DNA of 63,896 nt, filler included, from Dugesia japonica (lineage: Eukaryota), in NCBI GenBank assembly GCA_001938525.1. It is 6 parts of 6 records of this genome, joined end to end, with 100 filler letters (N's around TTAATTAATTAA, not from the genome) between each part and the next. Parts side by side here need not be neighbours in the genome. Positions count along the whole stretch, not along the records: positions 23,281 to 33,734 come from MQRL01635365.1; 5 more parts are not named here. One strand, 5' to 3'. Every line of letters starts with the position of its first letter. The first letter of the stretch is position 1. The notes under the pieces were generated by a model. That model was not told the origin of the DNA and made no database searches. It saw only the letters and a list, made by a program, of their open reading frames with translations. Positions 4,621 through 46,900 of the stretch are shown here, one piece after another. Position numbers and translations under genes: made by a program.

Positions 4621-7581
4621 AATAATTTCTTTTAAAACTTAACTTAATCTCTTTCTTTATAAAGGCTGTGCTCTGGTTTCAAAATTTTGACATTTTTGTT
4701 CCTGTCAGATTTGACAGTTTTTTAACTAAATATATTTCCTTTTAACCCGTGTCGTCAATTTAATGTTTATTTTGATCTCCCAGGTTTTCTTCTTATTTCA
4801 ATTATAGCTCTTACTCCAATTTAAGTCTTGAATTTTTATTGCTTCCTCTATTTCTTTTTTCAATATTTCATTTTTTCAACTTTCCACCTAATACTTTTTA
4901 ATTACTTAATTAAGTTATTTTATATTTTATGTTTTTAGGAATGGCTCATCATTCAGAAGCATTGGAATAATTATAAATACTAACATGTATATCACATAAA
5001 TATCTTTATTTACAATATATTTATATTTCGCATTTAATTTTTTAATTTTAATTTTTAATTAATTACTATTTTTAATTTATTTTAAAATTTAATAAAAATC
5101 TTAATTTTACTCCACACTAACAAAATCAATTTTTTTTGTTTAAGAAACGAGATCTATTCAAATAATATCCATATAAAGATTAATACTAAACTGACTTTGA
5201 AACTTGTCAAACTTTCTTTTAATGCTATGCTTGAGTCCAAATTTTAACAAATTGAGTTCATTCTCACTTAACTTAACATCGATTAAATTTAAAATTGTAC
5301 TTTTAACATGAAACTAATAAATATCAAATAATTTTCTAAGATTGAAAAGTTTCTGTTCTGTGAGACAACTTTATTATGAATTGAATTATTAGAGAAGAAA
5401 ATATCTGTCTTAATGCAAATATAAAATCAAAATTCATTGGTTACCTCAAACAGAGCTGATTTCACCAATGTCAAATTATTGATAATATCATTAAGTCTTC
5501 TTATCTCCAACTCAATCGCTCTTCTTAATATTTTTCCATGAATCAATCTCCATTCTTAATTTAATAAATATTCCGGAAGTTTTGATTTCAATAACGCGTC
5601 ATGAAATTCTCTTTGATGTCACTAGAGATAAAATTATTTTAACCCTGTTATTGGTAACTTTCGTTTGGGCGTGATTGTTAAGACCTCTAGCGGAAGTGGG
5701 ATTTCAAGTTAATCAGTCAGACATGCAGTAAGTAAGGCATTAATCAATGTAACACCAATTTTTTTTACACACTGGTCTACTTTCTCTTTACCTGTCTACT
5801 ATCACATAAGTGTGTTGGTGTGTATTCAGTCAGTGAGATGAGAGATGCAGTCATAGTATTATAAGTGTAACTAGGCAATCGCTAGGCGCGGTAAATCAAA
5901 ACCCAAAATTAGCATTAAAATAATAGTTAATCGCAAACAAATTAAACAGTAAGATTCGCCCTTATATGTTTCTCGTCAGAACCATATTNNNNNNNNNNNN
6001 NNNNNNNNNNNNNNNNNNNNNNNNNNNNNNNNNNNNNNTCCATTCTTAATTTAATAAATATTCCGGAAGTTTTGATTTCAATAACGCGTCATGAAATTCT
6101 CTTTGATGTCACCAGAGATAAAATTATTTTAATCCTGTTATTGGTAACTTTCGTTTGGCCGTGATTGTTAAGACCTCTATCGGAAGTGGGATTTCAAGTT
6201 AATCAGTCAGACATGCAGTAAGTAAGGCATTAATCGATGTAACACCAATTTTTTTTTACACACTGGTCTACTTTCTCTTTACGTGTCTACTATCACATAA
6301 GTGTGTTGGTGTGTATTCAGTCAGTGAGATGAGAGATGCAGTCATAGTATTATAAGTGTAACTAGGCAATCGCTAGGCGCGGTAAATCAAAACCCAAAAT
6401 TAGCATTAAAATAATAGTTAATCGCAAACAAATTAAACAGTAAGATTCGCCCTTATATGTTTCTCGTCAGAACCATATTATAATACTATTCCTCGTGATA
6501 GCGACTTTTACGATGATCTTAATATCCCAGCAGCCTGATTATTAATAGCTTCAAGAGCAAATTAATTACAAAAAATAGTTGCACTTTGATTAGTATAAGG
6601 TTACAAACATAGAATTTGATTATGCGCTTAGCGTGTAATAATTTACATTCTTGTTACGATTATTATTATTAATGCTCTTCTCCTTATTATTACGATTATT
6701 GCTAACAGTGATATTATTTATCCTCGGGTATAAGATTATTATTAATATTATTAGTATTAATATTATTATTATCGTTATTATTATTATTATTGTTATTATT
6801 ATTATTAATAAACCCATATAATCGCGACGCCGGAGTTCTAGTAGACCGCTCCAACATCTCTACTGAACAAATAATAGACGAAAGGCGCTGGGATGCTACT
6901 GAGAGGAGTGCATATTACAGCTGGTGTGGCCCTAGACGGGAAAGAGTGGCTTTTTTCCCAGCTCCACTTTCTTTTGAGAGATCGTCCGAGGTGCCTCAAG
7001 TCGAGNNNNNNNNNNNNNNNNNNNNNNNNNNNNNNNNNNNNNNNNNNNNNNNNNNATTACAAAAAATAGTTGCACTTTGATTAGTATAAGGTTACAAACA
7101 TAGAATTTGATTATGCGCTTAGCGTGTAACAATTTACATTCTTGTTAAGATTATTATTATTAATGCTCTTCTCCTTATTATTACGATTATTGCTAACAGT
7201 GATATTATTTATTCTCGGGTATATGATTATTATTAATATTATTAGTATTAATATTATTATTATTATCGTTATTATTGTTATTATTATTATTATTATTATT
7301 AATAGTATTATTATTACTTGATCATTATAATTAATTCGACTATTAATTTTAATGTCATTATCATTATGATCATTAGTATTATTATCGTTATTATCTTCAT
7401 TGGTATTATTATTATCATTATTACTATCATTGTTAGTATTATCGGAGTTATTCAAATTGTTGTTGTCGTGTTGTTATTACTGAAATTCTTCAAATTATTA
7501 TTATCAGTATTTTTCACTAGGAGGGTGACTATCGTTATAATCGTTATTATCGATATTGTTAAGTTCATAAATATTTGAGTT

Positions 7582-7764
7582 ATGGCCGGGGAATTAAAGA
7601 CGACCTTACGTTATATTCGGAAGCAAAGGATGGACGCACGCCTAAAGCAGTTGATAGCCCACCGATTGTCGAATGGTAAAATCGAACATCCCAACGAAAC
7701 CAATCTCCAGTGTTTCGTTGAGATGTTCCCACTAGATTGTAAAGTGGATATGGATGAGGAATAA
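7582..7764 (+). CDS. LTR cassette A, 60-aa protein of unknown function
   Basis: AG 2 nt before ATG, AATAAA at the stop; homolog at 31242-31424 shares IAH.L..G.IEHP.ETNL.CFVEMFPL. Confidence 0.7.
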   Translation: MAGELKTTLRYIRKQRMDARLKQLIAHRLSNGKIEHPNETNLQCFVEMFPLDCKVDMDEE

Positions 7765-7978
7765 ACACCCGCTCTAATTTATGGGCCAACAGTTCTTATG
7801 AAATAACCAAAAAAAAGAATATATTGTTTTTATTTGTGTTTAATTCTTATGAAATAAACTCTAAATATTGTTTTTAATCGTGAATAATTCTTAGGAGATA
7901 AATCCTAAATATTATTATTTTATACATTTTGGTCTTTAAATAAAACCTTNCTAGTTATTATTCTAGAATCAGCATCGA

Positions 7979-8406
7979 ATGGAATATAAGTGGGAAGTAA
8001 GCATTGACGTCNACTCGGGTAGAACGGTGTTTAAAAGTATCAAAACCCGTATAATCGCGACACTGGAGTTCTAGTAGAGCGCTCCAACATCTCTACTGAA
8101 CAAATAATAGACGAAAGGCGCTGGGATGCTACTGATAGGAGTGCATATTACAGTTGGTGTGGCCCTAGACGAGAAAGAGTGGCTTTTTCCCCAGCTCCAC
8201 TTTCTTTTGAGAGATCATCCGAGGTGCCTCAAGTCGAGCGCATATGGCATGATGGGCCTTCTTTAATCGACATCATCACAAACCGTCTACCCTCCACTAA
8301 CCAACTGACTTCGTTTATCCAGGATTATTTGTGGAGTACTCGTAATGGGGGGTCTAGCAGTAATATTGAAAATGCAGAAGAAGAAACCACAGTAGTTTCT
8401 ATGTAA
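7979..8406 (+). CDS. LTR cassette B, ~140-aa protein of unknown function
   Basis: Acceptor TTCTAG at 7961-7966, MEYKWEVSIDV...NPYNRDTGVLVERSN...SFIQDYLW; homolog at 31544-31945. Confidence 0.6.
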
Positions 8407-8565
8407 TGGGTTTAAGTAAAATAAATGTTTAACTGGGTGTTCGTGTCATCTGCCTTGCTGTTTTGTTGTCTATGAGACCATACTGTCTTCATTTATTAAA
8501 CTAAAAATATTCTAATACACANNNNNNNTGAGATCCTATTATTTTTTATTGTATTTGTATTTTAG

Positions 8566-8924
8566 TGCATTCATCCTTGAATAGATCGCAGGCCCCGAAT
8601 AAAAAACTACGCAAAACCAGTGAGGATATAGAGCTCACGTTGGATTTATATAGGCTCGCTAAACGGCGATGGGAGGCTGAGACGGCCGCAACTGAGGCCA
8701 AAATAAGGCACTATAAACGGAAATGTCTATCCTTTAAATCAGAAGTAGAAGCGACCCAGAATCAAGAGCGGGTGTGGAAATCCCAATTCGAATCCTTTAC
8801 TGACATCATCAAGTCTTATCAAGAACGTGAAAATAAATTAATAGAGAATATATTGAAATTGAAGACTGATATACCATTGGCCCTACTTTTGATTGATAAA
8901 GGTACCCAGATTAACCGTTCCTGA
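8566..8924 (+). CDS. LTR cassette C, ~119-aa coiled-coil protein with C-terminal LC8-type motif; no genomic ATG (AG|TG)
   Basis: Open frame from TTTTAG|TG CAT TCA to stop, AATAAA at 8955; homologs at 23281-23480 and 32091-32449. Confidence 0.7.
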
Positions 8925-9043
8925 GTTTTCGTGTTTCAATTTTTGATTGAATTGAATAAATTTGTTATTATTTGTATCTTCTCTAATCTACTTCTTCGAT
9001 TTTATTTATGGAGGTGCCTACTTAAACTGTAATTTTTCTTTAG

Positions 9044-9224
9044 TGCCACGAATTGTTAGATTTGTTAGGTAGATTTCCCAAAGCAGTATATAGCCGACCT
9101 GTCAAGCCAAATGGGAAACCCTGCTTGGGTACAGTGGGACGACAACGACGACATAGCCTCGTTCAATTTTTTGGAGTCCGACACAAACCAGTGGTTAGAT
9201 CCTGATGTATTGGAAGACCTATAA
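9044..9224 (+). pseudogene. LTR cassette D, internally deleted
   Basis: TTTAG|TG CCA CGA ATT start joined directly to KQYIADLSSQMGNPAWVQW...LEDL*; about 200 bp missing relative to 23595-23956. Confidence 0.7.
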
Positions 9225-9500
9225 TTTGTAATGTTAATAGATGTTTTTGATAACTTTTGGTTACTTTTTGATCTATGTCTATAAGGGAAATTAATGAACC
9301 CAAAGTAAAGGTGTACGAGTGTGAACCCCCCGTAAAGGTTGAAGGTCAACCGCTCTGCACTGAATATCCAACTGAGGGGCATTGGATTTAAATTCTTGAA
9401 CGGGTCTCCCTGAGAGCTGTTTTTCCCCAGCCTTTGTTTTCATTACCAACTCAGGTGGGACCTCAACAGAATTATCATTATAATCATATAATATTCAGTA

Positions 9501-11820: not shown

Positions 11821-12532
11821 CAATTTTGTCCACTAAATGATTATGTAAATAAATTAACATCATATTCAAAAAGTAAATGTAATTTTAACTATTATTAAAA
11901 TAAGTTTACCAGGAAACCTGCTAGCAAAGAGTTAAATCACATCCAGTTGATCATTACTTTCAAAAAGGATCTCGGTTCTCCTTTTCCATAAGGGTGGTAT
12001 TTAACACAAGGACGGATCTACAAGGGGGCAATGTGGGATATGATTTATTTATTATTATATCAATTTAGACTTATTAAATGAAATTATTGATATTTAAAAA
12101 TAGTCATTAATAAAACTTATTAAATAAACTTATTAAATAAACTTATTAAATAAAATATTATTTAATAAAAATTTGTTCCTTACAAATAAAACCAAAAAAT
12201 AAAATTTTAATTTATGGTTTATTGAAACTTTAAAATTTATTAATTTATTTAAGTTAATTTAATAATTCCATTATATTTTACATTTGAAAACTAATTTTTA
12301 ACAAAAAGAAATTAATTGAATCAAATTTACTTTTCACAGATAATTTACTAGATTTTTAATTAATAATTTCAAAATAGTCGTAGTAAATTTCAATTTTTAT
12401 TGCTGATTAATTTTAAAACGAAAATTTTTAAACAAAATAAGATAATTAAAAATTTCTGTATTTTACTTGTTTAAATAAACAAAAAATAATTATAATTTTA
12501 AATTCTCTAACGTTTTAATTTTGTATTCAGGT

Positions 12533-14305: not shown

Positions 14306-14332
14306 GTGAGACTTCATATTTGCTTGATTTCG

Positions 14333-17071: not shown

Positions 17072-18659
17072 ATTATTAAATGCATTCTACTCCAACACTA
17101 ATATACAAGTTGAAAATGTGTGTTGGTCAGTCCGGAATAATAAGTTTTATTTAATAATTTTCTATCAATTTCAAATTTTTTAATTTTTAAATAAAGATTT
17201 TAAGAAAAAGATTTCTAACCAAAACACAAAAATATCAATGCGCTTTCAAAACATGCTCACTTTTTGCCTTTTAAGATTTTTAAAATCTTTTTTAAATACA
17301 TATTTTGTTTTGGCCAGTAGTATATATTTCCAAATTTAAACTTTGTATTAATTAGATTTTTTTGGAAAACAAATATTCGTGATTAAAAATTCAAATTAAA
17401 ATAATAGTTCTTAAGAAAAGAAATTTGTTTTTAACAAAATTTTTATTTGATATTTTATTGATTAAATTGTTTAATGTTTTGTAATTTTATAATTACAATT
17501 ATTGTGAGAATAATTGTTGGACTTAACCATTGATCGGATTTGAGATTTCATTAAAATAAGATAAGGCTTCGATCAAAACAAGTTTTGTAATTTGTTTGTT
17601 TTTATGAAAAATATATTTTCTTTAATTTAATACTTAAATACTTACTTTTTTATTTTTAAAATAAAAACATTTTAGTCTACTAATTTTATGAATAGGCATT
17701 GTACTAGTATTATATAATTATACAATTTTTTGTTTATTTTATTATTACAATATTGCATATGTAAATAAATGTTTTTAAAAAATATATTTAAAGAGATATC
17801 TCACGAGCCTCAGATTTTAATAAATGATGAAACTAAACCCGTTTAACAAAGCTCAATTGAAAAAAAATTAATCTTAGTCTTTAAAGACAATATCATACTT
17901 ACTTTCAATGTCCTCTTCTAGGGATGTAATTTTTAAATCTTTACTTTCCAGTTCTTTATCTTTTTCCATTATACCTTCTTTAAGTAATTTTTCTGAATAG
18001 TTTACTAAACTAACTTTAAACTATTCATTTAATCTAAAATATTTAACATTTCTCTTGAAGATCCTCAATATTTTGTTTCATTTCATTCATTGTTTTATCT
18101 ATCAATAAAATTCGTTAATAATGAAATCTAATTAAATAATTTACTGTTTTCTGTTAATGTATTTTCTTTTGTTATTAATTTCTTTCTTAATTCTAAAATG
18201 ATGAATAATTATTATTGAAATATTAAAGAGTCTGCAATTTACAAATAAACTTGTAACAATCAGAATATTAATTATTTTATTAAACATTAATTACGAAGAA
18301 TTATTTTATTATTTTATAAATAAATGTGAATAAATACATAGTAAAAAAAATAATTTTCAAAACCATTGAATTAAAGTAATAAAACAAATAAAATTTGATT
18401 TATAACTATTATTAGTTTTGGAATTTTACTTTCATAGAAAATTGTTGTTTTAATATTTAATTTTAAAATCAATTGTAAAAAATATTTGAATTTAAAAATA
18501 TAAAGTTTGTAAAATATGAATTTAGTAGTAAAAGATAAATTCCAGTTAATAAAGCGGTGTGCCGCAAAAACTTATGGAATTGTTTAAAATTGCTAACGTT
18601 TTAAAGCTTTCCAATAAATATTTCCGACTTCAAAAAATTTAAAATCAATGAAAAAATCT

Positions 18660-18900
18660 TACAATTACAATTATTACGAGAGGAATTGGTGGACCATTGT
18701 TCGCATTCCAGATTTCATTTAAATAATAGCTTCGATGAAAATGTTTTTTTATTTCTATTTTGGTAAATATTTAAATTTTCGACTATTGTCTTCTTTAGGT
18801 TTATATCTTCTGAAGAAGACAATAGTAAAAAATTCGAATATCTACCAAAAAAGAAATAAAACAACATTTTGGTCGAAGCTATTTTTTTAATGAAAAAAAT
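18660..18900. repeat. Palindromic dispersed repeat with degenerate hammerhead cores (related pieces at ~17495, 19695, 44635, 53690, 56840, 62930)
   Basis: Shared AATAATTGTTGGAC..ACCATTGATCG...GCTTCGATCAAAA block; inverted arms around GTCTTC...GAAGAC. Confidence 0.75.
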
Positions 18901-19804
18901 ATCAAAATATTATTTAAAGGTTTTAGATAAGGAATTTTAATTAATTCAAAAGAAATATGTAATGTTTTTTTATGAATAAAATTTAAAGGTTGAGCACGGT
19001 TTTCTTAACAGTAAGCTTAATTAATAATAATTTCAATATAAATGAATATAAAAATCCACACACTGAATGAAAAGATTTCTGATTCGATAATATACGAGTG
19101 ATAAAATTGATCAGCAAAATGAGAATAATGAAAACAAGAATATTGCTTCATCATTAAAAGGAAAAAAGTGAAAGTAGCAAGATGAGATTCATAGTATTAG
19201 AAAACGATATGGATTCATAGCATTAGAAAACGATCCCTTCCTTCCGTTTTGTTTGATATCTCTCAAAACTCTAAGCTACGAAACCATGACACATGTTAAT
19301 AAAATTTCTTTATCTTTAACGAAATTTCAATAAAATAATTTTAAGAGCGATGTTGAATCCGTCAACTGAACATTAATTTTAGTATTTAATGATAAGGGCA
19401 TTAAATCCTAAAATTAATGTTCAGTTGACGGATTCAACATCGCTCTTTAAATTATTTTATTGAAATTTTTATTGAGATTGCACAATTGAAGTTATTTAAC
19501 GAAATTAACAGTTTTTTATTGAGGTGCACTGCGAAAAGAAAATTTTAGGCTCGGTGTGCCGCGATATGAAAAAAATTGCCCGATACTGTAATATAGTGTG
19601 GCATAAAATATGATTCCTTTAATTATCCTACTTAGAAATAATTAATTTTATTGATTTACTTTTACTTAATAAATAAACAACATGATGTAGTTTTATAATT
19701 ACAATTATTGTGAGAATAATTGTTGAACTTAACCATTGATCGGATTTGATATTCCAAAAAACAAAGAGAAAGCTTCGATCAAAATAAAATGTATTTTTAT
19801 AGAT

Positions 19805-19841
19805 ATTCAAATTTTCGACACACTTGTCTTCGTCAGGAATG
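19805..19841 (-). ncRNA. Minimal hammerhead ribozyme-like motif
   Basis: Minus strand ATTC-CTGACGA-A-GAC AAGTGT GTC-GAAA-ATTT-GAAT. Confidence 0.55.
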
Positions 19842-19961: not shown

Positions 19962-21386
19962 AGTAGATGGTTTAGAGCGCATGGGGCCACCCTATCCCAC
20001 GGAGAAAATTTTTACTGGCCCTGATTTTTAGCGTTTTATTGGTTGCACACACGTTTTTAGGGTTTTTGATTGACCTAAATTTTAAGGTCAAGTGGCCCCG
20101 ATTTTAAACGTTTCGATTGCTTAAAATTTTTAAGGTCAAGGTTAACTGGCCTCAATTTTTGATGAATGTTCAGATGAAGTCATCTTAGAGTTTTAAGGTC
20201 AAGGTAATATTTTTTTTGTTTAAATTAAGTGAAATTAATGATTTTTGTTTGTTTAAATTAATTAATTTTTACGATTGGTTTAAATGTACGGATTTTTTGA
20301 GGTTTTAATTTAAATTAAGTTATATAATGATTTTTATGGATTTTTCATAGAAAATCGATGGTAAAACTTATTTTGTTTAAAATTTAAAATTTTGAAGTAT
20401 AAATTTTAATCGCTCTGGTCAATATTAACATTAGAGGTTTCTCAGACAATATTAATAATAATATATTTATTTATTTAATTGTATCGCTATTAAATCTTTA
20501 TCAATCTTAATGGTTCTCCTAAGCCCTGGTTTTGAGGTATAGGTCACTAACTTCTTTGCTGAATTACATATTCTCAAGTTAATTCGTTTCTTCAAATTTT
20601 CAACTGATTTGCCATACAAGCTGTTTTTCATCAGCTTATAGTAATTTTTATTCAATTCATTCACACTTTCAGCCTTTAATTTGGTGTTTTCATCGATGTA
20701 TTGCTTGAAAATATGATCTTGTGGAAATTTAACTGTCTTATGAACATTTGTAACTTGCACACCTAATTGCAAGTACATCTGCAGTAATCCCCAGTGAACT
20801 ACGTAATTGAACTTTGAATAATGAGTCAACATTAATTTCTTGACCGTGCATCCTGGAGCATATTGATATTCGGCTGCAATGGGTAAGTCACTAAGATAAT
20901 CATGAAGTTCATTAGAAATCTCAATGTCAACTTCTAGTGTGTATCCATATTGTAACGACTCGAGATCTGCATATTTACATTTTTCTAAAACTTCTTCTAA
21001 TCCACAATATACTCATTCAAAATCTTTGTATGGTAACTTCTGGCTCAAAGCCCAACCCTACAGATTATTTGTATCGATGTATAACAACTCTCTGTTTTCA
21101 TCTGAAATAACATGATGTTTGTTGACAAAGGTGAGCCCACCTCTAATCACACCTTCGAAAAAAGTGTACATGTCGTTATCAGTTAAAAGCTCGATGGGTT
21201 CATTTAAAGTCATCAAAGCAGATGCCCAGCTCATACCTGGAATGCCAAAGAAATTTAAGGGTTCAAGACGGTTGTGAGCTAATGACTTGGCTCGGAATTG
21301 CTGCAAAAAGTCAGCTTGGAGAAAGACGTCCAACTTCATGTACACTATGACGTAGTGCACTATCCATCTACTACTATCCATCTACT
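19962..21386 (-). mobile_element. Internally deleted Polinton/Maverick
   Basis: Termini AGTAGATGG...CCATCTACT, flanks GAGCAA/GAGCGA (6-bp TSD, 1 mismatch), pPolB fragment inside. Confidence 0.85.
20467..21345 (-). pseudogene. Protein-primed family B DNA polymerase fragment
   Basis: GVIRGGLT, LLYIDTNNL*GWALSQKLPY, YTLEVDIE, YYKLMKNSLYGKSVEN motifs with stops. Confidence 0.9.
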
Positions 21387-23280: not shown

Positions 23281-24203
23281 CGCACGACCAAGAAAGAATT
23301 TGGAAATCGCAGGTAGAGTCGTTCGCCAAGATCATCCGGTCCAGCCATGACCGTGAAAAAAAACTGGTCAAAGGTATCCTGCATCTTAAGGAAAGATCCT
23401 ACTTCGAACCTTTCATGGTTGATAAGAGCACACAGACAAAATCTATATCGCGTGACTCAACTTTCTGTTTCTGGAAATAAAAAATCGAGTGTTGTAATCT
23501 TTGCNTTAGCGTGTATNACCTAAATTTTGATTAGACGAGTTCGATATCGATAATATTAATTATTTCTTCCCTATTATTAATCTTAATTATTTAGTGCCAC
23601 GAATTGTATTTCCAACAAGTTTACGGAGGTGTCACCGAATTATGCGTCGCTAGTTGTTAGAAGGACATTTAAAACGTAAGACCAAACGGGCCCTTCTAAG
23701 ACATCTCACCCAGCGGGATCGATTAATAAAAAAATTAGATTTATTGGTTAAAAAACAGAATGATTTGGCTGCACAAACCAAACAAATGTTACAACGAAAG
23801 GTAGATTTCTTAAAGCAATATATAGCAGACCTGTCAAGCCAATTGGGAAACCCTGTCTGGGTACAGTGGAATGACAGTGATGACATAGCTGCGTTTGACT
23901 TTTTGGAGACTGACACAAACCAGTGGTTAGATCCTGGTGTGTTGGAAGACCTATAATTTGTAATGTTAATAGATATTTTTTGATAACTTTTGGCTAATTT
24001 TTTATCAATGTCTATAAGGGCAAATAATGAACCCAAATTAAAGGTGTACGAGTGTGAACCTCCCGTAAAGGTTAAAGGTCAACCACTCTGTACTGAATAT
24101 CCTACTGAGGGGAGTTGGATTTAAATTCTTGAACGGATCTCCCCGAGGGCTGTTTTTTCACAGCCCCTTGTTTTCTTTTACCAACTCAGGTGTGGCCCCA
24201 ACA
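23281..24203 (+). mobile_element. Gene-bearing giant LTR, copy 2 (3' part; cassette C end, cassette D with nonsense codon, terminal region)
   Basis: ...MVDKSTQTK..., ATTTAG|TG CCA CGA ATT at 23595, terminus GGCCCCAACA. Confidence 0.8.
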
Positions 24204-25248: not shown

Positions 25249-26156
25249 TGTTGGGGTGAAACAACCAGTTATCTAAAAGGAAAAAGAAGACAGAAAATGA
25301 AATTTACAAAATAACACAAAAAGAGCCAAAAATAGAAACATCTGAAGAATAATTAAATCAAACGCAATCATGTTAATTAAAGAAAAAATCAAATTTATAT
25401 TATAAAAACAAACAAATTTGTTATTTCAAAATAATTAATTAGGAAAGAAATAGTAATTAATTTCATTGAAAAATAAAGGAAAATTAGACCAAAATCAGTT
25501 GTTCATGAACAATACCACTCTGGTTAATCCCAGAATGTTGAGGTAAGAAAAATTGAAAAAAAGTGTTATCTGGTCAATGGGATTTTGTAATTGGAAAACT
25601 TTATTATCATCAGAGGAACTATCACATGGGTTGGAAAATTGGGCCAATGAGGGTCCTAAAAACAAAAAAAAGAAAGCACCAAATCTCACCTGATGGTCTA
25701 AAAATAACGGCGGGTGGTGAAACTCTGCAAAAAATCTAAAAATTGGCACCAACGCCAATGAGAATCAAGGATTTCAAAAATATATATCCAATAGTAATGA
25801 TGCCGGGTTTCATCGGAAAACCATATAAAAGGCACAATGATTTAGTAGAAAAATAATAAAAAATTTAATTTTTCACCACAGCTCAAGTATTGTAGAACTA
25901 CCACTTGTGAGCAAATTACTTGAAGTAACCACGTATTAATTTTCAAGAAACTTGTTGGATTATTGGAATTAGGCCAAGTAACACTATCATTAGTTTGACC
26001 AGACTTAATTTTATAAAAAAGGAAATTAGAAAAGGAGTATCATCGATCAATTGTTGGGAATTCGTCTTCACCAAAAGAAATAGTCAAGCCGTTGCAGAAA
26101 TCCTATAGATTTTGATAAATTTAAAAAGTAATTTTGTTGTTATAATTTATATCATA
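25249..26156 (+). mobile_element. 5' part (U3-like) of a diverged LTR of the same family
   Basis: Starts TGTTGGGGTGAAACAACCAGT; patchy similarity to 28589-29150 (GGGCCAAT..TCCTAAAAA); TATAAAA near 25824. Confidence 0.65.
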
Positions 26157-26495
26157 CACGCTACTCCATTCCATTACCAACCTCCAGCTCCCCCACCAGT
26201 AGTTCAGGCCTTTATATATATATAATATATACCCATAATAAAATATATTATTACCGTAAATGAACTCTTTATTCTTTTCTATTTAAAAATGTTTTATTAA
26301 ATACCGATGATGAATGAGTAAAATGAGTGAATTTATTCATATTAGAGATGTCAATCCATGATAGATTATTATTAATTACCATTCCGCTTATTATTAAGGT
26401 TGAATATAAATGGTGAAAATTGAAGCCAAATAACAAGAAATTTATTTTTTCAACAAATATATTACCTACTTCGGGAATCCAATAATNTCTCAGCA

Positions 26496-27043
26496 ATGGA
26501 TGGATTGTATCTCGTCCAACAAACCAGAGATAAAGTTATCAAATGCACCACTTGCAAACAAGAAGCTCTATTACTGCAAGGAATAGAGAAATTACCAAGG
26601 AAAATATTCCATCACCCAAATTGCTCAAACCAATCAACGAGGAAGAAATACAAACAACAGCATGCAGAATCGAATGGAATATGTCACGTATCCGAATAGA
26701 AATGGCAGCTGAATTACAAATCAATAGACTGCATAATATCCTAAAGACAAGTCAGGAAAATATCAAGCAACTGATAAAACAAACAGTCGCTGAGAAAGGT
26801 ACTGAGTTAATCACGTCATACGAATTATACCAAAGATCATGTAAACTAGTAGAACCTCAAGTGAAATATGAGCAAGAATGGGCATTAATCGATAATAATT
26901 GTGTTATCTGCTTAGAAGGAATCATCGAGGTTGTATTCCTGCCATGCGGACATTTTAAGACCTGCTATAAGTGCGCTGTAAATCTAAATGAATGCCTTGT
27001 GTGCCGGAAGGTAATCGAACGTAGGGTATTGGGAATAAAATAA
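26496..27043 (+). pseudogene. IAP-like gene (degenerate BIR-like Zn motif + C-terminal C3HC4 RING), one frameshift near 26625; true start probably upstream
   Basis: AMDGLYL...DKVIKCTTC-x18-HHPNC then, in the shifted frame, CVICLEGIIEVVFLPCGHFKTCYKCAVNLNECLVCRKVI. Confidence 0.75.
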
Positions 27044-27156
27044 ACTTAAAATAAACTTTTAGTAAATAAACTTAAAATGTAAATAATGTATAATTATCTA
27101 TATATAACTGTCAAAATAATGGTATAACAAAATAACCACTTTCTCTAATTTTAGAA

Positions 27157-28328
27157 ATGAACAACGAAAACTTAATCACCCATCTCCGCAACGAGATTCA
27201 AATATTGCAAATTCAAACTCGAACCCTTACCACTATATCTGAAGTCCTAAAATGGAAACTGGAGTCCAAAATAGATGCACTGTCCAACTTTCAATTACAA
27301 AAATACAACAGTGANNNNNNNNNNNNNNNNNNNNNNNNNNNNNNNNNNNNNNNNNNNNNNNNNNNNNNNNNNNNNNNNNNNNNNNNNNNNNNNNNATAAA
27401 AAGCAACATCGATGCCAACAGAGCAAAAATCAACGCCATTAAACAGGCTCGGATTTGGAAAAGTAAATACGAGGAAGTTGAACCCAAAAGAAAAGAGGTA
27501 GAGAACCAATTATCCATCGAACAAAAAAATAGTCAAATCCTTAGGATGGAATTGTTCAACATGCAGTTTGAGAAAAGTCATCTCGCTACTGAAAATCAAC
27601 TTCTGATAAGTTTGGCAAATCGAGAGGGGGTGAAGGCTGGCATCGATAAACTATCTCTGGAATTCGAGAGCATAATTCAGGATTATCAACAAAAAAATGA
27701 GTTTTTACAACAATACATAGAAGCCTTGGAACAGGAGATTCTTGAACTAAGTACACTCTGCCGAGAAAAAGAAAATGAGATCGCAGAAAAACAACAACAC
27801 TTAATTGAAACATTCTCCGAAATTAAGAAACTTCTGAAATCTTATACAATTCGCCAACCTATCTCCCACCCAATAATGTTAGCAACTCCTCTCCAGCCAA
27901 GTGGTCTAACCACCTTCAATTCTCCCAAATCAACCTTAAACCATGCTGCTCCTGAATGGCAACCAACAATCTCAGGCCTATCAAGACAATCCACCCCATT
28001 AATATTTCAAGATCTCATAGTAGCTCCAGTTAAAACTAGGATACCCGAGTGGATAAATAAAATAATCGATTAGGCTTCCTACATAACTCCAACATCCTCC
28101 ACAATTCCCACCCAACATAGAAAACCGGTCCCATTGGTAATTCAAGAACCTCAAAGCATTTGTCTCAGTTCTGTAAAACTCAGTCAGATACCCAGTAAAA
28201 CCTCAGTAATCGACAACAATCAATTTAAAAGAAACCTATCCCAATCAATAGTAACCGAAATGCTACGGAAATATGGCTCTGATATACAACCGAACAACCA
28301 GAACAACCTAGTAGATGAAGTCGACTAG
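27157..28328 (+). pseudogene. Long coiled-coil protein with P/S/T-rich tail (gap inside; one in-frame TAG at 28071-28073)
   Basis: CTAAT..TTTTAG|AA ATG; ORFs 27546-28073 and 28134-28328 are in one frame; AATAAA at 28349. Confidence 0.6.
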
Positions 28329-28549
28329 AACGATCTAGGACCGATGTAAATAAACTGTAAATAATAACTAAATGATTCAATGAATTAACAAACTCTGAAT
28401 GTATCAACGTACACTGTATTTAAATGTATATCGTAGAACAAGTTTTATGTATGCGTCATGGGATAACATGTAATGACCTTAAAATTTTGCCTTGTCTGTT
28501 AATTTTCATTAGGGTTGAGGGGTTTTCTGCAACAGGGNGGAATTACGGC

Positions 28550-28588: not shown

Positions 28589-31241
28589 TGTTGGGGTGAA
28601 ACACCCAGTAGAATGAGAAATCAAAGGGAGTCAATAAACATTCACCATCAAAACAAAAATAGTGTCACGGGGAGGAAGTAGAAAATAAAACAAGAAGAAT
28701 CGGGATCACATTGATAAACGAGAATAGAAAGACTCAAAGGATTAATGGTATTAATTATATAATCGGAAGAATTAATAAAATTAATAAAGAAAATGGCTAA
28801 CGAAAAAGAAAATAATTACAAAAAATAACAATTAATTTAAACGAAAAAAATTAATTAAAATTGAGACAAAATCCGTTTTAACCGAATAACTTCGCTCAAG
28901 GAAATCGGAAAGAATTCGGACAAAAAAATATGAAAAGAAAACAACAAGATGCATTGAAAATGCTAAAAGACGAAAACTTACCACCATTCCGAGGGTTGCT
29001 GCAGGGTCCTGAAGATCGGGCCAATAAGAATCCTAAAAATAAAAATAAAACAAAGACACAATTTTCAGGTGTCTCTCTAAAAATAGCTGCCAATTGTGGC
29101 ACCAAAACTTGAAGAAAATTGTAAAAATAGTTGTTTTTTCTGCTAAAAACAAGGGTCCTTTTATAGGATTTGACTTACACTCCGACTTCTTCTAGATTTG
29201 CTGATTATTTTTAGAGCAGCTTTTTTTTTGATTTCATTGGTTCCATCGTCAATTTTCTACAACTCACGAAAACAAATTTTACACCGATCCTCAACATACA
29301 ACTCAAAAGAATTTACTAATCAATTACCAGACTCGCATTAAGTTACAAGAAAATATTATCTGTCAAGAAGGATTCACTTTCAGGAGGAAACTTTTTAGTA
29401 ATTTCTAAATAATTGAATATCAATTAATCTTATTTCAAGGATAAGTGAAGTAATCAGCAGAACCTAGACAAGAAAAATTAGTTCTCCGAGGAAACCGTTC
29501 TTATCAGTTACTACCGATTGCCAGCACTGTTGCAGAGACCCTCTAACTAATATTGAAAAGTAAAATATTATTTTTATTTATGTTAAAAGTTGTAATATTA
29601 TCAAATATGGAATATTATGTAGCTTAATAAATGATGTCATGATAAAAAATCTTAATTTGTTATATTTTCTCCTTTAAGATTGTTGATCTATAATAGATAA
29701 ATGATTAATCATTTTGTATGCAAATTAATTAAATAGAAAATTCCTTGAAAAATCAGTCTTAATTAATTAATTGATTTTGGAGTTAAAGTAGCTAATAGAA
29801 ATGTCATGAATTTACCTTACTTAAAAATAAAATTTTATTTTGCCCAAAGTGAAAGAACAGAAAATATGCACTATGAATAAGTGCAATACTTTTTCGATAA
29901 TCTTATAACAACCACCGATTAGAAATTTCATGAAAAGAAGAAGTTTTCAATGTTATTTATTTCTTATGTTAAAATCCCATATTCATTAGTTAACTGATTA
30001 ACTGCATCAATTAGATAGGCTACTGTTAACTTGGAGTGGGAATAGAATGACGAATAAACATCTCTGACTGTTAAATGATATTATACAGTAGATTCCGTGT
30101 TAGTTTTCATTAAATTAAAGGAAAAAGAGTTAATATTTAAATATGTTAAAGCTTAGTTAAACTGAGATCGGAACACACATATATATATATTAAAAAAATA
30201 CATGAACTAACCGATTCATCCATCCTGTTTTCATATTAATAATTTTTATAACAACACAAAATATAATATCCAAAATTGTAACTCAAGATAAATAAAACTC
30301 CAACAATTTATTTAGCAAAATTTATTGAACGATATTTACCTATTTCGATATTTAGCCATGATCATAAATCCGCAGGTTGTGATGATAGATGGCGGCGAAC
30401 GTGCTTAACTCAGGTTCTGACCGACTGTGTTTTCTGACATGGAATGGCCACAAGTAGTGCAGTAGAATGAGAATCCCTATCGCATTTTCCAATTTTCTAA
30501 AAGACAGTAAGCCATCACCTAAAATTATGACTGAAAAGTGATACTATTAGACAATGCTTGTGTTAATGCTTACTCTAACCAGACATACACACTCGAGAAT
30601 AATGACACACAACCCGACACTATTGCAAATCAAATCAATCCGTTAGTAAGGGGGATAATCACCAAGCAACGGTGATGCGTAAAAGTTTAAAAGTAAAAAG
30701 ATATATAAAAATACAAATTTTATAATTATTATAATTAATGCGATTTATAACCTTTAATGGTTCAAATCATCATTATTACAACTAGCAGTAACGGCCTTAA
30801 TTTTTTTATATGCAATAAACACCATATAACCCACATTACTATTAGTAATTTATCTAGAGCAACGCCACTCCCCTGACATAATATTCTATTAAATAGCGCT
30901 TTAAGATTATGATATTTATTTACCACAATGGTGCCATTCCTAGTGTCAAAATTAATATTTTTGGTTGTTACACACTTCGGTAATTAATTTTTCTCTAAGA
31001 TATTATTATGGCCAGAATAATTCGGTTTCTGTTGATTAATGTCGTGGTATTACTTAGTAGAATTTTTGCCAGTTATGCCATCCCAATTGATTTTAGTACA
31101 ATCAAAATTAATATCCTTCCCTTAAGAGTTATCCTGTTAATACTGTATACCCCGCAGGGTTATCAAGAGTCAGTGTCTATTATTCAGCTTAGGGGATTAA
31201 GTTATCAATTTAAGATGGTGGTTAATGATTTCATCTTTAGC

Positions 31242-31424
31242 ATGCCAGACAAATTATATCATACCCTGCGTTGGATTGACAAGCAGCGACGCCTCAGTCG
31301 GACGAAGCAGCCAATAGCTCACCTACTGATCAAAGGGGAAATAGAGCATCCAGACGAAACGAACCTGAGTTGCTTTGTAGAAATGTTTCCCTTAATGACA
31401 GAAACCGGTTTAGACGCAGAATGA
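31242..31424 (+). CDS. LTR cassette A, 60 aa
   Basis: CTTTAG|C ATG; MPDKLYHTLRWIDKQR...GEIEHPDETNLSCFVEMFPL; AATAAA at 31453. Confidence 0.7.
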   Translation: MPDKLYHTLRWIDKQRRLSRTKQPIAHLLIKGEIEHPDETNLSCFVEMFPLMTETGLDAE

Positions 31425-31543
31425 TTCGCGTTGTTAGTAGTGTTGTCATGAAAATAAATTATATGCGCTATCTTGTCGACGTTTTATAATTGTTTATGGA
31501 AATTTTGGTTTTATTCTAATCATTCTCATACTTTAATTAGGAG

Positions 31544-31945
31544 ATGGAATCTATTTGGGAATGCATAGTGGATTGACGCACCCGTAGAATAATTTTCCGG
31601 CGGCACCACAATCCCTACAATCGAGATGCCGGGATCTTAGTAGATAGATCAAATCTACCCCCCATTGAAGCAGCCGTTGCTCGTATCCAGAGCTTTGGAG
31701 AACGACTTAACTATCGCCAGTGGAATGGTCCTGAGCGTAACCACGCTACTCCATTCCATTACCAATCTCCAGCTCCCCCACCAGTAGTTCAGGCCTTCAT
31801 AGCTAATCTGCTCTGGGGCGTTAGGGAACCTTCCGGGGTGGAGGATGCGGAAAATACAGCTCCCCTGATACTACAAATCCCGACTCTTGATGTTATCCTG
31901 ATTTCAAATTTTGTGTTTCTTTTAATAAATAAGTGTCTTAAGTAA
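31544..31945 (+). pseudogene. LTR cassette B (one in-frame TGA)
   Basis: CTAAT...TTAATTAG|GAG ATG; MESIWECIVD*RTRRIIFRRHHNPYNRDAGILVDRSN...AFIANLLW. Confidence 0.65.
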
Positions 31946-32090
31946 TATTAACATACTCTTTAATCCATTGAGAAAATTGTCTTTAATAGTGTTATTCCAT
32001 GTTTTATGTTTTAAGTAAAATTGAGTAGATATTAGTAAATCAGTCATCAAGTCGATGAAGGGAAATGATTTTTATGATATTTTCTTTTAG

Positions 32091-32449
32091 TGCATTCTTC
32101 GTTAAATCGCCCCCCAGCTCCAACCAAGAAAATCAGAGACACCAGTGAGGACCGCGAAATGACGTGGGACCTCTACTGACTGGCCAAACGACGTTGGGAG
32201 GCGGAAGTGGCTAATGCGAATAGTAAAGTCCTCCGTTATAAGAAAAAGTGTATTCTTTTTAAAAAGGAAGCGGAGGCCTCCCATTTACAGGAGCGCACTT
32301 GGAAAAAACAAGTGAAATCTTTCTCAGAGATTATCCGGTCCGGCCATGACCGAGAAAATAAACTGGTTAACGATATTTTGATTCTCTGGGAGAAAATCCC
32401 ACTCGAGCCGCTAATGGTCGACAAAAGTACTCAGACGAGCCGCTCTTAA
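32091..32449 (+). pseudogene. LTR cassette C (frameshift + TGA), ends MVDKSTQTSRS
   Basis: TTTTAG|TG CAT TCT TCG TTA AAT CGC; aligns to 8566-8924. Confidence 0.7.
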
Positions 32450-32568
32450 CTTGATATTTCATTATTGTTTGAATTAATAAAATATTCATTTGTATGAGAT
32501 TCTTCTGTTACTTGTTTTCTCGAGGCATAGATGAGGTATTCATTAATTTAATTGTACTTTTCCTTTAG

Positions 32569-32945
32569 TGTCTCGTATCGTGTTTCCGACTAGTTTGAGG
32601 AGGTGCCACCGTATTCTGCGCCGTCTATTATTAGAGCGACACTTAAAACGCAAATCAGAACAAGCTCTTCTTAAGCACCTTGACCAGAGAAATCAGCTCA
32701 TAAAAAAATTGGATTTGGTAGTCNNNNNNNNNNNNNNNNNNNNNNNNNNNNNNAAAGCCCTAGAGGCAGAGAACAGGAAGTTGCTGTTAAGAAAAATAGA
32801 CTTCCTAAAACAATACATCTCTGATCTTTCCCGGCAGATTGGGAACTCCGCTTGGATTCATTGGGGCGATGATGAAGATATCACCGCCTTCAATTTTACA
32901 GTAGATGACCCAGATCAATGTGCTAGTGTGCTAAACGATCTATAA
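32569..32945 (+). CDS. LTR cassette D, ~125-aa basic/coiled-coil protein; no genomic ATG (AG|TG)
   Basis: CTTTAG|TG TCT CGT ATC; RIVFPTSLRRCHRI...KIDFLKQYISDLS.Q.GN..W..W.D; AATAAA after the stop. Confidence 0.7.
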
Positions 32946-35336
32946 ATGTTATAATAATAAATGTTCCGAGGAGTATTGGTTTAATTTTTGTGTAATTAAG
33001 GGAAGTTTTTGAACCAAAATACAAAGGTTTATGGGTGTGCACCTCCCATTAAGAGTGAGGTCAACCACCATGAACTGAATACCTACCCTAGGGGCGGTAG
33101 GGTAAATTCTTGAAAGAGTTCCCCTGCGGGCTGTTTTTCCCCAGCCGCATTAATTTTTCATTCAGCTCAGGTGGGACACCAACACTACTATTAATTGGAT
33201 CGGAAGTTTTGATTGGGTTACTCGCGCTTCTGAGACTATCACACTACAGACATTCCCAGAATATCCAAAATATATATTTTGGTGGCAAATACCCACAGAG
33301 ATAAGCACAATTAAACCTACTACTAACATAATAACATCAACCCCCATAAAGTTAAATATAACGATTAACTCGAGTTTAAACGACAATCATAAGATAAAAA
33401 TTAATACAGAAAGTACATATTTAAAATACATTATAAGAAATCGAAATTCAGACCTAAATAAATATTATAAAAATTATCAATACTATAAGAATAAGATTCT
33501 ACAACTTTGGGGCACTACAAAAAATCCAGAACCTGAAAGCAAAATAATAAAAAGAATTTCCTTATAATTTTGGGAACAGGTGTAATACTCTTCCTCGTAG
33601 CGTTTATAGTATCAATTTATCAAATTCACAAACGCTATAATTGGAAGAGACAGCGTTATCGGAGTCGCAATACCCCAAACTCACCGGACTATGTTCAATG
33701 GACACAAGTATAAACACTTTCCAAAATGTATATTNNNNNNNNNNNNNNNNNNNNNNNNNNNNNNNNNNNNNNNNNNNNTTAATTAATTAANNNNNNNNNN
33801 NNNNNNNNNNNNNNNNNNNNNNNNNNNNNNNNNNTTAGTGAATCGGTTATTAAGTTCTTATTGGTGTAAATGTTTGAAATATTTATATAAAGTTTAATTT
33901 GATAAAAACAATTCAATGTTAAATTGTTATAAGCAGATTTTCATATATTTTCTGGAAATATATATAAATTGAGAAAATTTGGATATTAATAAAATAGACA
34001 AACGAAAATTAAATATTATTTTTTTTTAAAAATAGCTTTTGCTGTTTTTTATGAAATATCTCCATCTTATGTCATTTGCGGATTTACAAGTAAATTTTCA
34101 GAAGTTTCGAAAGTGTTTGTCTGTTGAACCAATAGAAATCAGTTTATTTCACAATTATATTATCAGTCGAAATATTTTGTAATTACATTAGTATTCATCT
34201 TTTGGAAAACAAGTTAGCTATTTAAATTTTTATCTATATATTTATATTTATTATATTAAATTTAAGTACTTCGCTTACTTTTTAAGTCGCTATTTATTTT
34301 TCTTAATAATTTTTATTTTATATTATTTATTATAATTTATTAATTTTCAAGTTTTGCATTTATCGTTCAACTATTGGAAAAATAAAAATAAATTGCATAA
34401 CTAAAAAAATTTCTAAATTTTATTTTTTTAATATTATTTAATTATCTTTTTAAAAGAAATGTTTAAAAAATAAAAATTATTTTTAAAATTTCTAAAAGTA
34501 TATATAAATTTTGATTTTCAGAAATTATAGAAATTCTTTTTAAGAAAATTTAATATTAATAAGATTTAGTTATTAATAATAAACAATAAATAACCGAAAA
34601 TTAAAACGTAAAAACTTTTTTCCAAAATTAAATAAATGAATTAAATGACATATAACAAAAAAATCAGAAAAAAATTTTTTCTGTTATTGTAATACATTGG
34701 GAATATAAATCAAAATTTTATTTCTTTGATATATTCAATTAACAGGCAATTATCTCAGCATTATTTAAATAAAGCGTCTAATATGAAATTTGGCTGTACT
34801 TGAAATTCTGAGCAGAATTTTTAATAAATTATCAATTATCTTTTGGTATCAAAAGGAAAAATTAATAAAATTCTAAAATTTACATTTTATAAAATTTATT
34901 GGATTTCAATTGTCTTTAATTTTAAAAAATAATTAAATTAACTAAATGATTTNNNNNNNNNNNNNNNNNNNNNNNNNNNNNNNNNNNNNNNNNNNNNNNN
35001 NNNNNNNNNNNNNNNNNNNNNNNNNNNNNNNNNNNNNNNNNNNNNNNNNNNNNNNNNNNNNNNNNNNNNNNNNNNNNNNNNNNNNNNNNNNNNNNNNNNN
35101 NNNNNNNNNNNNNNNNNNNNNNNNNNNNNNNNNNNNNNNNNNNNNNNNNNNNNNNNNNNNNNNNNNNNNNNNNNNNNNNNNNNNNNNNNNNNNNNNNNNN
35201 NNNNNNNNNNNNNNNNNNNNNNNNNNNNNNNNNNNATCATTCTGTTATTTATATTCACCATATTTAAAAATGCAATTCGTGTGTAATTTATTAGAATACA
35301 ATTTTATTGAATTATTTTTAGTTCTGGATACTAATT

Positions 35337-43915: not shown

Positions 43916-46900
43916 TTTTCGTACTTCGTATTTCTCATGTTTTTTATGTATTGTAATTTGGTGGAATTGAAACCAATACAAGAAATCAAAACAGCTAAGG
44001 AAATGTTTGCAGAGATCTATGTGTACATATATGTTCTCACATTTACTATTGAAGAAATTCGACAAGTTAGATGTTTTCATTTTTCTAAATTATTATGGAT
44101 ATTGTTTAATATAAATAACATTACTTTAAATATTTTTTAATTTTCATAAGTAGACTTTTTGAAATTTCTAACACAAATAAGATAGGAACGTTGAAAATTA
44201 TTTTCTTTCGTCTTTATTAAATAGTATATATTGTATAGTGTATCAGAAATTACAAATTCTACACTGGATTTTCGTTTCTAAGTTAAATGACAATGTTTTA
44301 AATGATTTCTAAAATATCTTTTGGAAATATAATTCATTTAATTATTCTTTCTAATATTATCAAATGTTATAATTATAAATATACTAATGGCTAGGTTGAT
44401 TTTGTTGTTTATGAAGGAATATGTGATTATTAAAATAAATATAACTCTAAATATGTGTAACTGTAAAAGGAAATATTTTTTTTGATATTTTGTAATTAAT
44501 TCTAACTAGAAAGGTGAAATAATTTTGGTAGAATAATTTTCTCCCAATATCTAATGAAAATTCATTTCTTCCAATTTCTGTATATCACATTATATAAATT
44601 AATTTATTGTGATATATCCTTTTATAATTGCAATCATTGAGAGAATAATTGTTGGACATAACCATTGATCGTTTTTCAGATTTCATTAAAATAAAATCTT
44701 CAATTAAAATTTGTTTTTTTGGTTTTTGATAACATTTCTATATGAAGACATATATCCTATTAAAGCATGTTTTACATGACTTTTAAATATTTTTAATTTT
44801 ATTTTTATACGCTTATTGGTTTACCATATAAATTTTTCAATTTTACAAAAATTTTTGGATTGTCCGACTTGGTCAAATTAGTATTTTTTTAATATAATTT
44901 TCTATTTTTTATATATTATTGATATAGTTGATGTGAATTTTCTCTTCATGTTTTTATTTTTACTGCTTTTCTTCTACTTTCTGATTTTTAAATTTCTTAT
45001 TAATTTATATATTCGATGTGTTTTGCTTTAATTTTTGTATCGGCATATTTATATATTTGTTCCGATTTTATTTGTACATCTGTTATTTGTGCAATAATAA
45101 TTTTTTTATTTAATAATATTTACTGTTAAATAATCTTATTTGTACATATCTTTATGTATATTTTCATGTGATTACAAAATTTCGATGTCGATTTTATTTT
45201 TTCATTTAAATTTTCTCAATCGAGGTAAATAAATATATGTATATATAAAGTTGCTTTTTTCTTATAAAAATGAAACTGAACCACGTTATACACAAGCAGC
45301 AAATGCTAAGTTTATTTTTAGCTTATTTTATCTTATTTTAATTAAATTCAAATTTTTTCATATTTTTTGTTTTGTTATTAGATACTTGATCAAGAGCTAA
45401 CTAGTATAAAATATAAATTCCAAGAATACTTTTCTCGAATCTGGAACAAATTGGACATAGTTATTATCGCTTTTTTTATTTCAAGTACCGTTACGAGATT
45501 TACAATTCCTAGTGAAAATTTCATGTTATGTCGCTGTTTATTTGCAATGACATTGAGCATGTTCTTTCTCAGATCAATGCAGTTTTATTTTGTAAACAAA
45601 TCTATTGGACCTAAAGTTATCATGATTCGAGATATGGTTGAGTTATAATTTTTCTCAAAAATTTATTTAGATTATTCTTTTTTATAGCTTCGAGATATTT
45701 TGTTTTTTTTAAGCATATTTGTGATTTTTATTTTGGCATATGGAACTTTATCTCATTCTTTGAGATTTCCCAATAGCAAATTGGACTTAGCACTTTTTAA
45801 GGATATTGCCTACATTCCGTATTTTCAGACATATGGAGAATTAATGCTGGACCAATTTGAAAGTATTTATCTTAAATAAATTTTTTATATTTAAATAATT
45901 TCTGATATTGAATTTGTTATTGAATTTGTTATTGAATTTGTTATTGAATTTGTTATTGAATTTTTTATTGAATTGAATTTGTAAAGGACCGTTTTGAGTT
46001 TGTAAATTTTATCTCAAATTCTGTTGTAAGTAATAATGACGACTTTATGGTGTCCTTTGATATTTCTAGCTTATTCACTATTGTTCCTTTGCTGGAAACA
46101 ATAGATCTTTGTTGTGATATATAGGAAGTAATGTGAGTGATCAATCTAAAATGAATATATCTGCTTTCGTTAATTTTTCACTTTTCCAACGACTAATGTT
46201 TCGTTTCTTTTAACAATGAATTATATTAACAGATTGATGGAGTAGCTATGGGTTCTCTTTTAGCTCCGAAATTAGCGTGGATTTTCTTGAATAAGCATGA
46301 AGAACGAATGAACTTACTTACCAAAAATTTGTTGACGATGTTTTTCTTATTTTTGTTAATCCTGAACATGTTCTGCTTTCCCAGAGTTTTATGAATTCGT
46401 TATATCCTAATATTCGGTTTACTGTAGAGGAAGAAAGAAATGGTATTTTGCCTTTTTTGGATCAACGCATTATGAGACTGAAATCTACAGAAAGAAAAGT
46501 GATACTGGCTTGTATGTTACCCCAAATAATTTTTGTAATCCTGCTTATAAAAAGAACATGATAAAGTATTTAATGCTTTGTTCATGGTCATTGTTCTCAA
46601 TTTATTCCAAATCCATTAAAAGTATTGAACATTTATTTAAGTTACTGCAAGCAAATGGATATAGTAAACAATTTTTAAGTTCATTGACTTCGTTGACAAT
46701 TGACAAAATATTGGTTGGTAATAATATTGGTTTTGATAAAAAGATTGAAACTGTGTTGAATAATCCTAAACCCTATAGCACTTTATCTAATTGGATTGGG
46801 CCATTTGTTTTATCGATCGCTGAAGGTTTTAAAAAGTTAAAGAATTCGATTTTGAAAGCTGCTAAGGATTTTCTTTTATTGAAAATTGTTTCTAATATTG

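Follow-up and report, generated by a model that had tools for sequence, protein, structure and literature searches.

Two small genes of a planarian mobile element with start codons possibly completed by splicing

A 63,896-nucleotide (nt) stretch of DNA from Dugesia japonica (assembly GCA_001938525.1; length with filler; hereafter the window) contains a mobile element that carries an array of co-oriented open reading frames (ORFs), here called cassettes A to D. Two of these, C and D, begin with TG placed directly after an acceptor-like AG. The explanation that best fits their sequence is that the methionine codon of each is completed by splicing, and we give this reading a probability of roughly 0.6. 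The A of the AUG would come by cis-splicing from an upstream exon ending in A. The analysis of the C and D starts used DNA only, from three copies of the element within the window. Comparison of the window, which has the character of AT-rich animal DNA, with itself reveals this one repeat in three partial copies, at ~5549-9468, 23281-24203 and 28589-33184, with cassettes A to D as its cargo. The copies and cassettes that bear on the C and D starts are as follows.

28589..33184, + strand: copy 3 of the element, TGTTG...CAACA, 4.6 kb; its left end is set by motif and its extent is provisional across 29130-30300.
32086..32449, + strand: cassette C, copy 3; acceptor TTTAG|TG at 32091; a stop at 32177-32179 breaks the frame; AATAAA at 32476.
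32564..32945, + strand: cassette D, copy 3; acceptor TTTAG|TG at 32569; 124 open phase-1 codons; gap of N's at 32724-32753; AATAAA at 32956.
23281..24203, + strand: copy 2, comprising the 3' half of C (stop at 23478-23480), cassette D (TTTAG|TG at 23595, stop at 23651-23653) and the conserved tail.
8561..8924, + strand: cassette C, copy 1; TTTAG|TG at 8566; 118 open codons.
9039..9468, + strand: cassette D and conserved tail, copy 1; TTTAG|TG at 9044; D is internally deleted.

A first-pass annotation of this DNA had the frames of C and D begin at TTAG|TG at the five positions 8566, 9044, 23595, 32091 and 32569. All five are correct, and all read TTTAG|TG. The sequence TTTAGTG occurs eight times on the + strand of the window and once on the - strand, and the five junctions account for five of these nine. 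Upstream of each junction lies an AG-free zone of 28-53 nt, with 10-13 T in positions -20 to -3. The same minima for AG-free zone and T content are reached by 101 of the 2402 YAG sites in the window, or ~0.002 for two independent cassettes, and TG directly follows 155 of the 2402, or ~0.004 by chance for two unrelated cassettes both starting with TG. TTTAG|TG is unchanged between lineages whose four-fold degenerate sites are identical at 15 of 77 positions, and the junction plus the first codons forms the longest identical run (13 nt) between the two C copies. TTAGT was also considered as an initiator element, with transcription starting at its A; this idea was dropped because it would leave a one-base leader.

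The earlier statement that C and D have no ATG holds in the sense that they share no conserved one. At all five sites the stretch from the junction back to the first upstream stop (4-29 codons) is free of in-frame ATGs, none is present across the 118 codons of C in copy 1 or in the readable part of the 124 codons of D in copy 3 (10 codons fall inside the gap), and the in-frame Mets of the remaining copies are not common to the copies. The conserved frame of both cassettes is phase 1 only. Synonymous sites are saturated between lineages (proportion of differing synonymous sites, pS, 0.86-0.99), and for A, C and D the corresponding non-synonymous proportion, pN, is 0.19-0.33. Over the 15 codons that follow the TG, C has 12 synonymous versus 6 non-synonymous differences, and D has 10 versus 1. 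Ungapped identity for C and D, respectively, is 10/24 and 8/24 at -30 to -7, 6/6 and 5/6 at -6 to -1, and 20/30 and 21/30 just downstream of the junction. From this profile and these counts it follows that protein-level selection starts at the junction, with a short non-coding motif kept before it. As read from the substitution pattern, purifying selection on C and D begins at the first codon past the TG.

If the AG|TG match were due to chance and the frames were decayed fragments of longer ORFs, the stops, frameshift and deletion in the copies and the lack of a family match would be expected. We give this explanation next to no weight: selection starts at the first codon past the TG, identity falls upstream of -6, and the upstream frame closes within 4-29 codons. 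Alternatively, C and D might be made from RNA that is unspliced or that begins internally, translation starting at the genomic GTG as a near-cognate codon. An in-frame genomic GTG triplet is present at all five sites, which would explain the kept G without a donor, and GUG starts are known to exist from the part of one source available (PMC9851317). However, this leaves the invariant TTTA, the T-rich tract and the AG-free zone unexplained, and TTTA precedes only 8 of the 910 GTG triplets in the window, five of which are the C and D sites. Cistrons downstream of AATAAA sites are also poorly reached by scanning, and we consider initiation at GTG improbable.

A profile comparison of C with D found no similarity; the two are unrelated, and the TG therefore arose or was kept twice. 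At these junctions any phase-1 upstream exon completes an N|TG codon, and of the residues that NTG can encode, methionine alone has a single codon. Both C and D have retained the third-position G (p ~0.04 if it were free to vary). Since this G is kept despite saturation, under which the third base of a valine or leucine codon would drift, the codon is most simply read as that of an initiator Met, since it stands first in two unrelated frames that are both under selection.

The predicted products resemble nothing found in the databases searched. No Pfam family scores above cut-off for A, B, C or D (C and D are ~120 amino acids long). For C, 17 candidates from a 90% protein set yielded no match. 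For D, a profile found no relative among 1.84 billion protein representatives, and none was confirmed among 172 stretches from viral contigs or 231 from metagenome contigs. The predicted fold of C (copy 1) is a single long helix of 84 residues (19-102; predicted template-modelling score 0.41), from which a role as a coiled-coil regulator is a guess.

The array is completed by cassettes A and B, which keep a whole ATG.

31242..31424, + strand: cassette A, copy 3 (60 amino acids); TTTAG|C ATG; upstream, the frame stays open as far as an ATG at 31008 (78 hydrophobic codons).
31544..31945, + strand: cassette B, copy 3; TTAG|GAG ATG; a stop at 31574-31576 breaks the frame.
7582..8406, + strand: cassettes A and B, copy 1; A is open at 7582-7764 and B, at 7979-8406, is frameshifted near its 5' end.

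In A and B the ATG lies 1-12 nt past an AG, as it does in two ORFs (RING and coiled-coil) of a sister unit described below. With C and D included, an AG stands 0-12 nt before the start in every case; the copy-1 site of A (GAG) is weak. At the other end, 5 of 10 ORFs have AATAAA within 48 nt past the stop (background 1385 of 8894 windows, 15.6%; p ~0.01), and it overlaps the stop in two further ends and precedes it in one. Spacers from a stop to the next acceptor measure 114-202 nt in all seven cases. This arrangement fits the modules of acceptor, ORF and poly(A) site proposed previously.

An array spaced in this way might be an operon resolved by spliced-leader (SL) trans-splicing at each AG. 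The host is an animal, and all seven spacers fall within the 300-nt flatworm operon threshold given in the accessible part of PMC12582326. The flatworm SL, however, ends in AUG according to the portion of PMC9851317 available, and such an SL joined at AG|TG would open phase 0, which closes after 4, 4, 9 and 21 codons, and after 53 in the deleted D copy. The operon would require a host SL that ends in A instead, and we judge it highly improbable. Of the alternatives raised by the first-pass annotation, SL trans-splicing with an AUG-ending SL and unspliced GTG initiation are thus disfavored, the former by early closure of phase 0 and the latter by the acceptor features that it does not explain.

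In the preferred reading, C and D would be small protein genes of a mobile element; the AGs before them would be used as acceptors, and the codon formed would be AUG and would initiate. Each cassette would have its own poly(A) site, and the choice of acceptor and poly(A) site would decide which of A to D is made. Unspliced RNA would yield neither C nor D. The candidate sources of the missing A are listed here.

30501..30512, + strand: candidate donor ACA|GTAAGC, copy 3 (last exon base 30506); 28589-31240 contains just one other GTRAG, and A is at -1 in each.
30467..30506, + strand: in-frame ATG plus 13 codons leading into the copy-3 candidate donor; the candidate exon is potentially coding.
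5860..5954, + strand: TATAAG (5860) and candidate donor ACA|GTAAGA (last exon base 5948), copy 1, repeated at 6439.
32141..32151 (copy 3) and 8616-8626 (copy 1), + strand: within C, a donor-like site in phase 1, CCA|GTGAGG, with the same sequence in the two full copies.

The donor motifs proposed earlier, with last exon bases at 30506, 5948 and 6439, are located as described, and so is the TATAA followed by no ATG before 5948, here TATAAG at 5860. The sites at 5948 and 6439 sit in a 441-nt, 98% duplicate that flanks a gap of N's and is probably an assembly overlap, so they are counted once. The ACA|GTAAG motifs tie for the top crude donor score in their stretches, and the motif ACAGTAAG is found once outside the element, at 19008. 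In the stretches scanned upstream of A, all six GTRAG (four in copy 1 and two in copy 3; two overlap) have A at -1, versus 52 of 121 across the window. The CCA|GTGAGG site inside C (8620 and 32145) lies 424 nt ahead of the D acceptor in both copies; splicing from it to D is possible and would provide a second source of the A. About half of our confidence as to the donor goes to the GTAAG sites that precede A (30506 and 5948), and the rest to a leader of the parent element outside the window or, for D, to the site in C.

The upstream exon may itself be coding. C and D would then be 3' exons joined to a short phase-1 exon with its own ATG, and the N|TG codon would be internal; for D, codons 1-18 of C, up to CCA|GTGAGG, could serve as that exon. 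The in-frame ATG 13 codons upstream of the copy-3 donor agrees with such an arrangement, as do the A ORF of copy 1, the long A ORF of copy 3 and the RING and coiled-coil ORFs, all of which are in frame at offset 2 mod 3 from their AG. Upstream of the copy-1 donor, in contrast, the frame meets a stop 8 codons away and contains no ATG, and three ORFs, the two copies of B and the short copy-3 A, would be out of frame. The phase-1 site in C is identical in both copies and among the two longest identical runs, but since 28 of 117 C codons are identical, chance alone should produce three identical codons in a row. In addition, at saturated divergence the third base of an internal valine or leucine codon should not have survived. 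We regard a coding upstream exon as unlikely, though not negligible.

Several observations weigh against completion of the C and D start codons by splicing, or against parts of the scheme built on it. All of the statistics are post hoc and rest on three copies, and the sample was not widened, searches for outside relatives of the element having given 0 matches. Four of the five B to D frames checked besides C of copy 1 and D of copy 3 are broken or partial. Half of the ORF ends (5/10) have no AATAAA past the stop; in the other lineage, the two D copies read AATAGA. The host arginyl-tRNA synthetase (ArgRS) gene in the window likewise has an AG|TG junction, of the ordinary kind. Six ATGs lie within 200 nt upstream of the copy-3 donor, and the one at 30467 is in frame and open to the junction; the copy-3 exon would be coding if transcription starts upstream of 30467. 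No TATA[AT]A is present in the same 200 nt. An A before GTAAG is common in the window (34/67), and the candidate leaders of copies 1 and 3 do not align, their local scores being matched by 76, 266 and 96 of 300 shuffles; the divergence between the leader copies is saturating, and their non-alignment neither shows nor excludes a common leader.

Considered together, these data uphold one part of the earlier interpretation, namely that C and D are selected frames at an acceptor-like AG|TG, open in phase 1 only and without a conserved ATG. They do not bear out the named donors as parts of one shared non-coding leader: alignment of the flanks does not exceed that of shuffles, an in-frame ATG lies upstream of the copy-3 donor, and across the window 34 of 67 GTAAG in any case follow an A. 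The full shared-leader model with these donors is doubtful on the sequence. More broadly, a retrotransposon terminal repeat may have turned into a four-gene transcription unit resembling those of DNA viruses late in infection, with one A-ending leader joined to alternative acceptors, a poly(A) site per gene, and two unrelated genes behind a split A|TG that is closed both to unspliced RNA and to the host AUG-ending SL. We hold this as a tentative proposal, with the odds somewhat against it.

The element ends in a conserved sequence that follows D.

32946..33184, + strand: conserved non-coding tail, copy 3; ends in CAACA; TATA-like site ~190 nt before the end.

This ~240-nt tail is also present at 9225-9468 and 23957-24203 (+ strand) and is far more conserved than any other non-coding part, with 171 of 285 columns invariant in the three copies; 0 of 300 shuffles match its alignment score. 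The TATA-like site lies 188-191 nt before the end and reads TATAAG in two copies and TAATTAAG in the third. It is a candidate for a true promoter of a long terminal repeat (LTR), with the tail as R/U5. If the tail does contain a real LTR promoter, A to D would belong to U3, and the donor could be part of the 5' leader of the parent element, outside the window. By eye, the tail has no conserved A|GT donor. At one aligned position it carries the poly(A)-signal variants AGTAAA, ATTAAA and AATACA, and an acceptor-like CTCAG|GT lies 14 nt before its end. When the tail is folded, 5 of 51 predicted pairs are changed on both sides in the three sequences, which 5 of 500 shuffles equal. Single-sequence z-scores range from 0.1 to -2.3 with no preference for the + strand. 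On balance the fold does not stand out from shuffled sequence; it leaves the orientation unfixed and is given no weight. Searches with tail patterns found 0 matches in viral contigs and 0 in metagenome contigs, and a scan of 5000-34000 against Rfam gave 0 at E 0.1.

Copy 3 belongs to a set of TG...CA units with short inverted ends, which measure 1.5, 3.3 and 4.6 kb. The starts TGTTG(A/G)GGTGAAACA are found at 9501, 25249 and 28589, and CAACA ends at 9468, 24203 and 33184. The 4.6-kb unit is likely to be the long LTR of a Ty3/gypsy element, the reading we favor from its structure. No gag-pol adjoins any of the copies within the window. A target-site duplication of 4-5 bp was not found, the flanks of 28589-33184 agreeing at 3 of 5 positions and the two sister units having none; old age, nesting or mis-joined ends could hide one.

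The larger sister unit (25249-28534, + strand) shares its 5' end with copy 3 (61% over 460 nt) and contains a frameshifted C3HC4 RING ORF (CAG|CA ATG at 26496) and a coiled-coil ORF (TTTAG|AA ATG at 27157). Between a 60-nt piece of this unit (26157-26216) and cassette B of copy 3 the identity is 97%, a hint that families have exchanged sequence recently. The 1.5-kb unit (9501-10968, + strand) has the same start motif and begins 32 nt past the end of copy 1. It contains two small ORFs (10354-10572, with a hydrophobic end, and 10752-10889) and a perfect CAG|GTGAGT at 10743. Copies 2 (23283-24203) and 1 (8566-9468) are 88% identical in the 3' half of D and the tail, but in C their pS is 0.90, and one or other of them looks recombinant.

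Elsewhere in the window, the host ArgRS gene occupies ~12530-14310 (+ strand), has short introns and is 60-64% identical to the ArgRS of many animals. Its ATG lies 2 nt past an acceptor-like CAG, and two of its predicted donors end in A (CAA|GTAAAC and AAA|GTGAGA). Fragments of a protein-primed type-B DNA polymerase (PF03175) at 20467-21381 (- strand) are probably what is left of a decayed Polinton-like element. A decayed gypsy-type reverse transcriptase region, recognized from motifs by eye, spans 62200-63320 (+ strand) and is cut at 63320 by a start like that of the TGTTG family. A dispersed repeat of 100-130 nt, resembling a miniature inverted-repeat transposable element, occurs in both orientations at 17458-17603, 18655-18799, 19686-19837, 44590-44907, 53657-54213, 56833-57007 and 62931-63044, with inverted arrangements near 53.7-54.2 kb.

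A splice-made AUG is already known as a principle; its use by two A|TG cassettes of a single array would be a new form of it. If the reading is true, the element controls two accessory proteins through one splice event, more tightly than an upstream ORF would, within an array architecture otherwise known from DNA-virus late units. It would also offer a direct handle on the use of very long LTRs in flatworm retroelements. Genes without an ATG are invisible to ORF callers that require one, which may explain why no relative was found among the protein representatives. The gain would lie in architecture and in new protein families, rather than in new chemistry. In the literature we found no multi-gene LTR array with split A|TG starts, which is weak evidence of absence, subscription journals being thinly covered.

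The adenovirus major late unit is organized in poly(A) families. In adomaviruses, the late genes LO4-LO7 each have an acceptor directly before the ORF and share a leader (bioRxiv 10.1101/341131, seen in part). The array described here resembles both late units in its co-oriented ORFs and in having an acceptor-like site just before each start. According to the same portion of that source, however, the adomavirus late ORFs keep a whole ATG, encode virion proteins and have a leader demonstrated by reads, whereas here two ORFs are without the A, the common leader is a candidate only, and the carrier is an integrated repeat. As regards that carrier, Burro and GYPSM1 are giant planarian Ty3/gypsy elements with very long LTRs, accessory ORFs and RING-type domains, as described in the part of PMC6431247 available, which does not mention ORFs inside the LTR or their splicing. 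Planarian LTR elements are de-repressed when the piRNA pathway is knocked down (PMC8532177). The 4.6-kb TG...CA unit fits such a long LTR, and its sister unit encodes a C3HC4 RING; unlike Burro, it has no gag-pol attached in the window, and the likeness drawn here is one of description.

The closest parallel for the start codon is the env gene of springer-subclade errantiviruses of Drosophila, which is spliced to an AU dinucleotide so that the Met codon is completed as AU|G (bioRxiv 10.1101/2023.08.03.551782, seen in part). In both cases an ORF of an LTR element would have its Met codon completed by splicing to an upstream piece. As far as that excerpt goes, springer has a single env ORF downstream of gag-pol, with its junction mapped by experiment. 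Env genes of this type encode an F- or gB-type envelope glycoprotein. In contrast, the planarian element would have A|TG, in two unrelated ORFs of ~120 amino acids that form part of a four-ORF array in a TG...CA unit and are read from DNA; neither scores above cut-off for a Pfam family, and C is predicted to be one long helix. The flatworm SL that donates a 3'-terminal AUG likewise supplies a start codon when RNAs are joined (PMC9851317, in part), but it gives the whole AUG, in phase 0, whereas C and D are open in phase 1 only.

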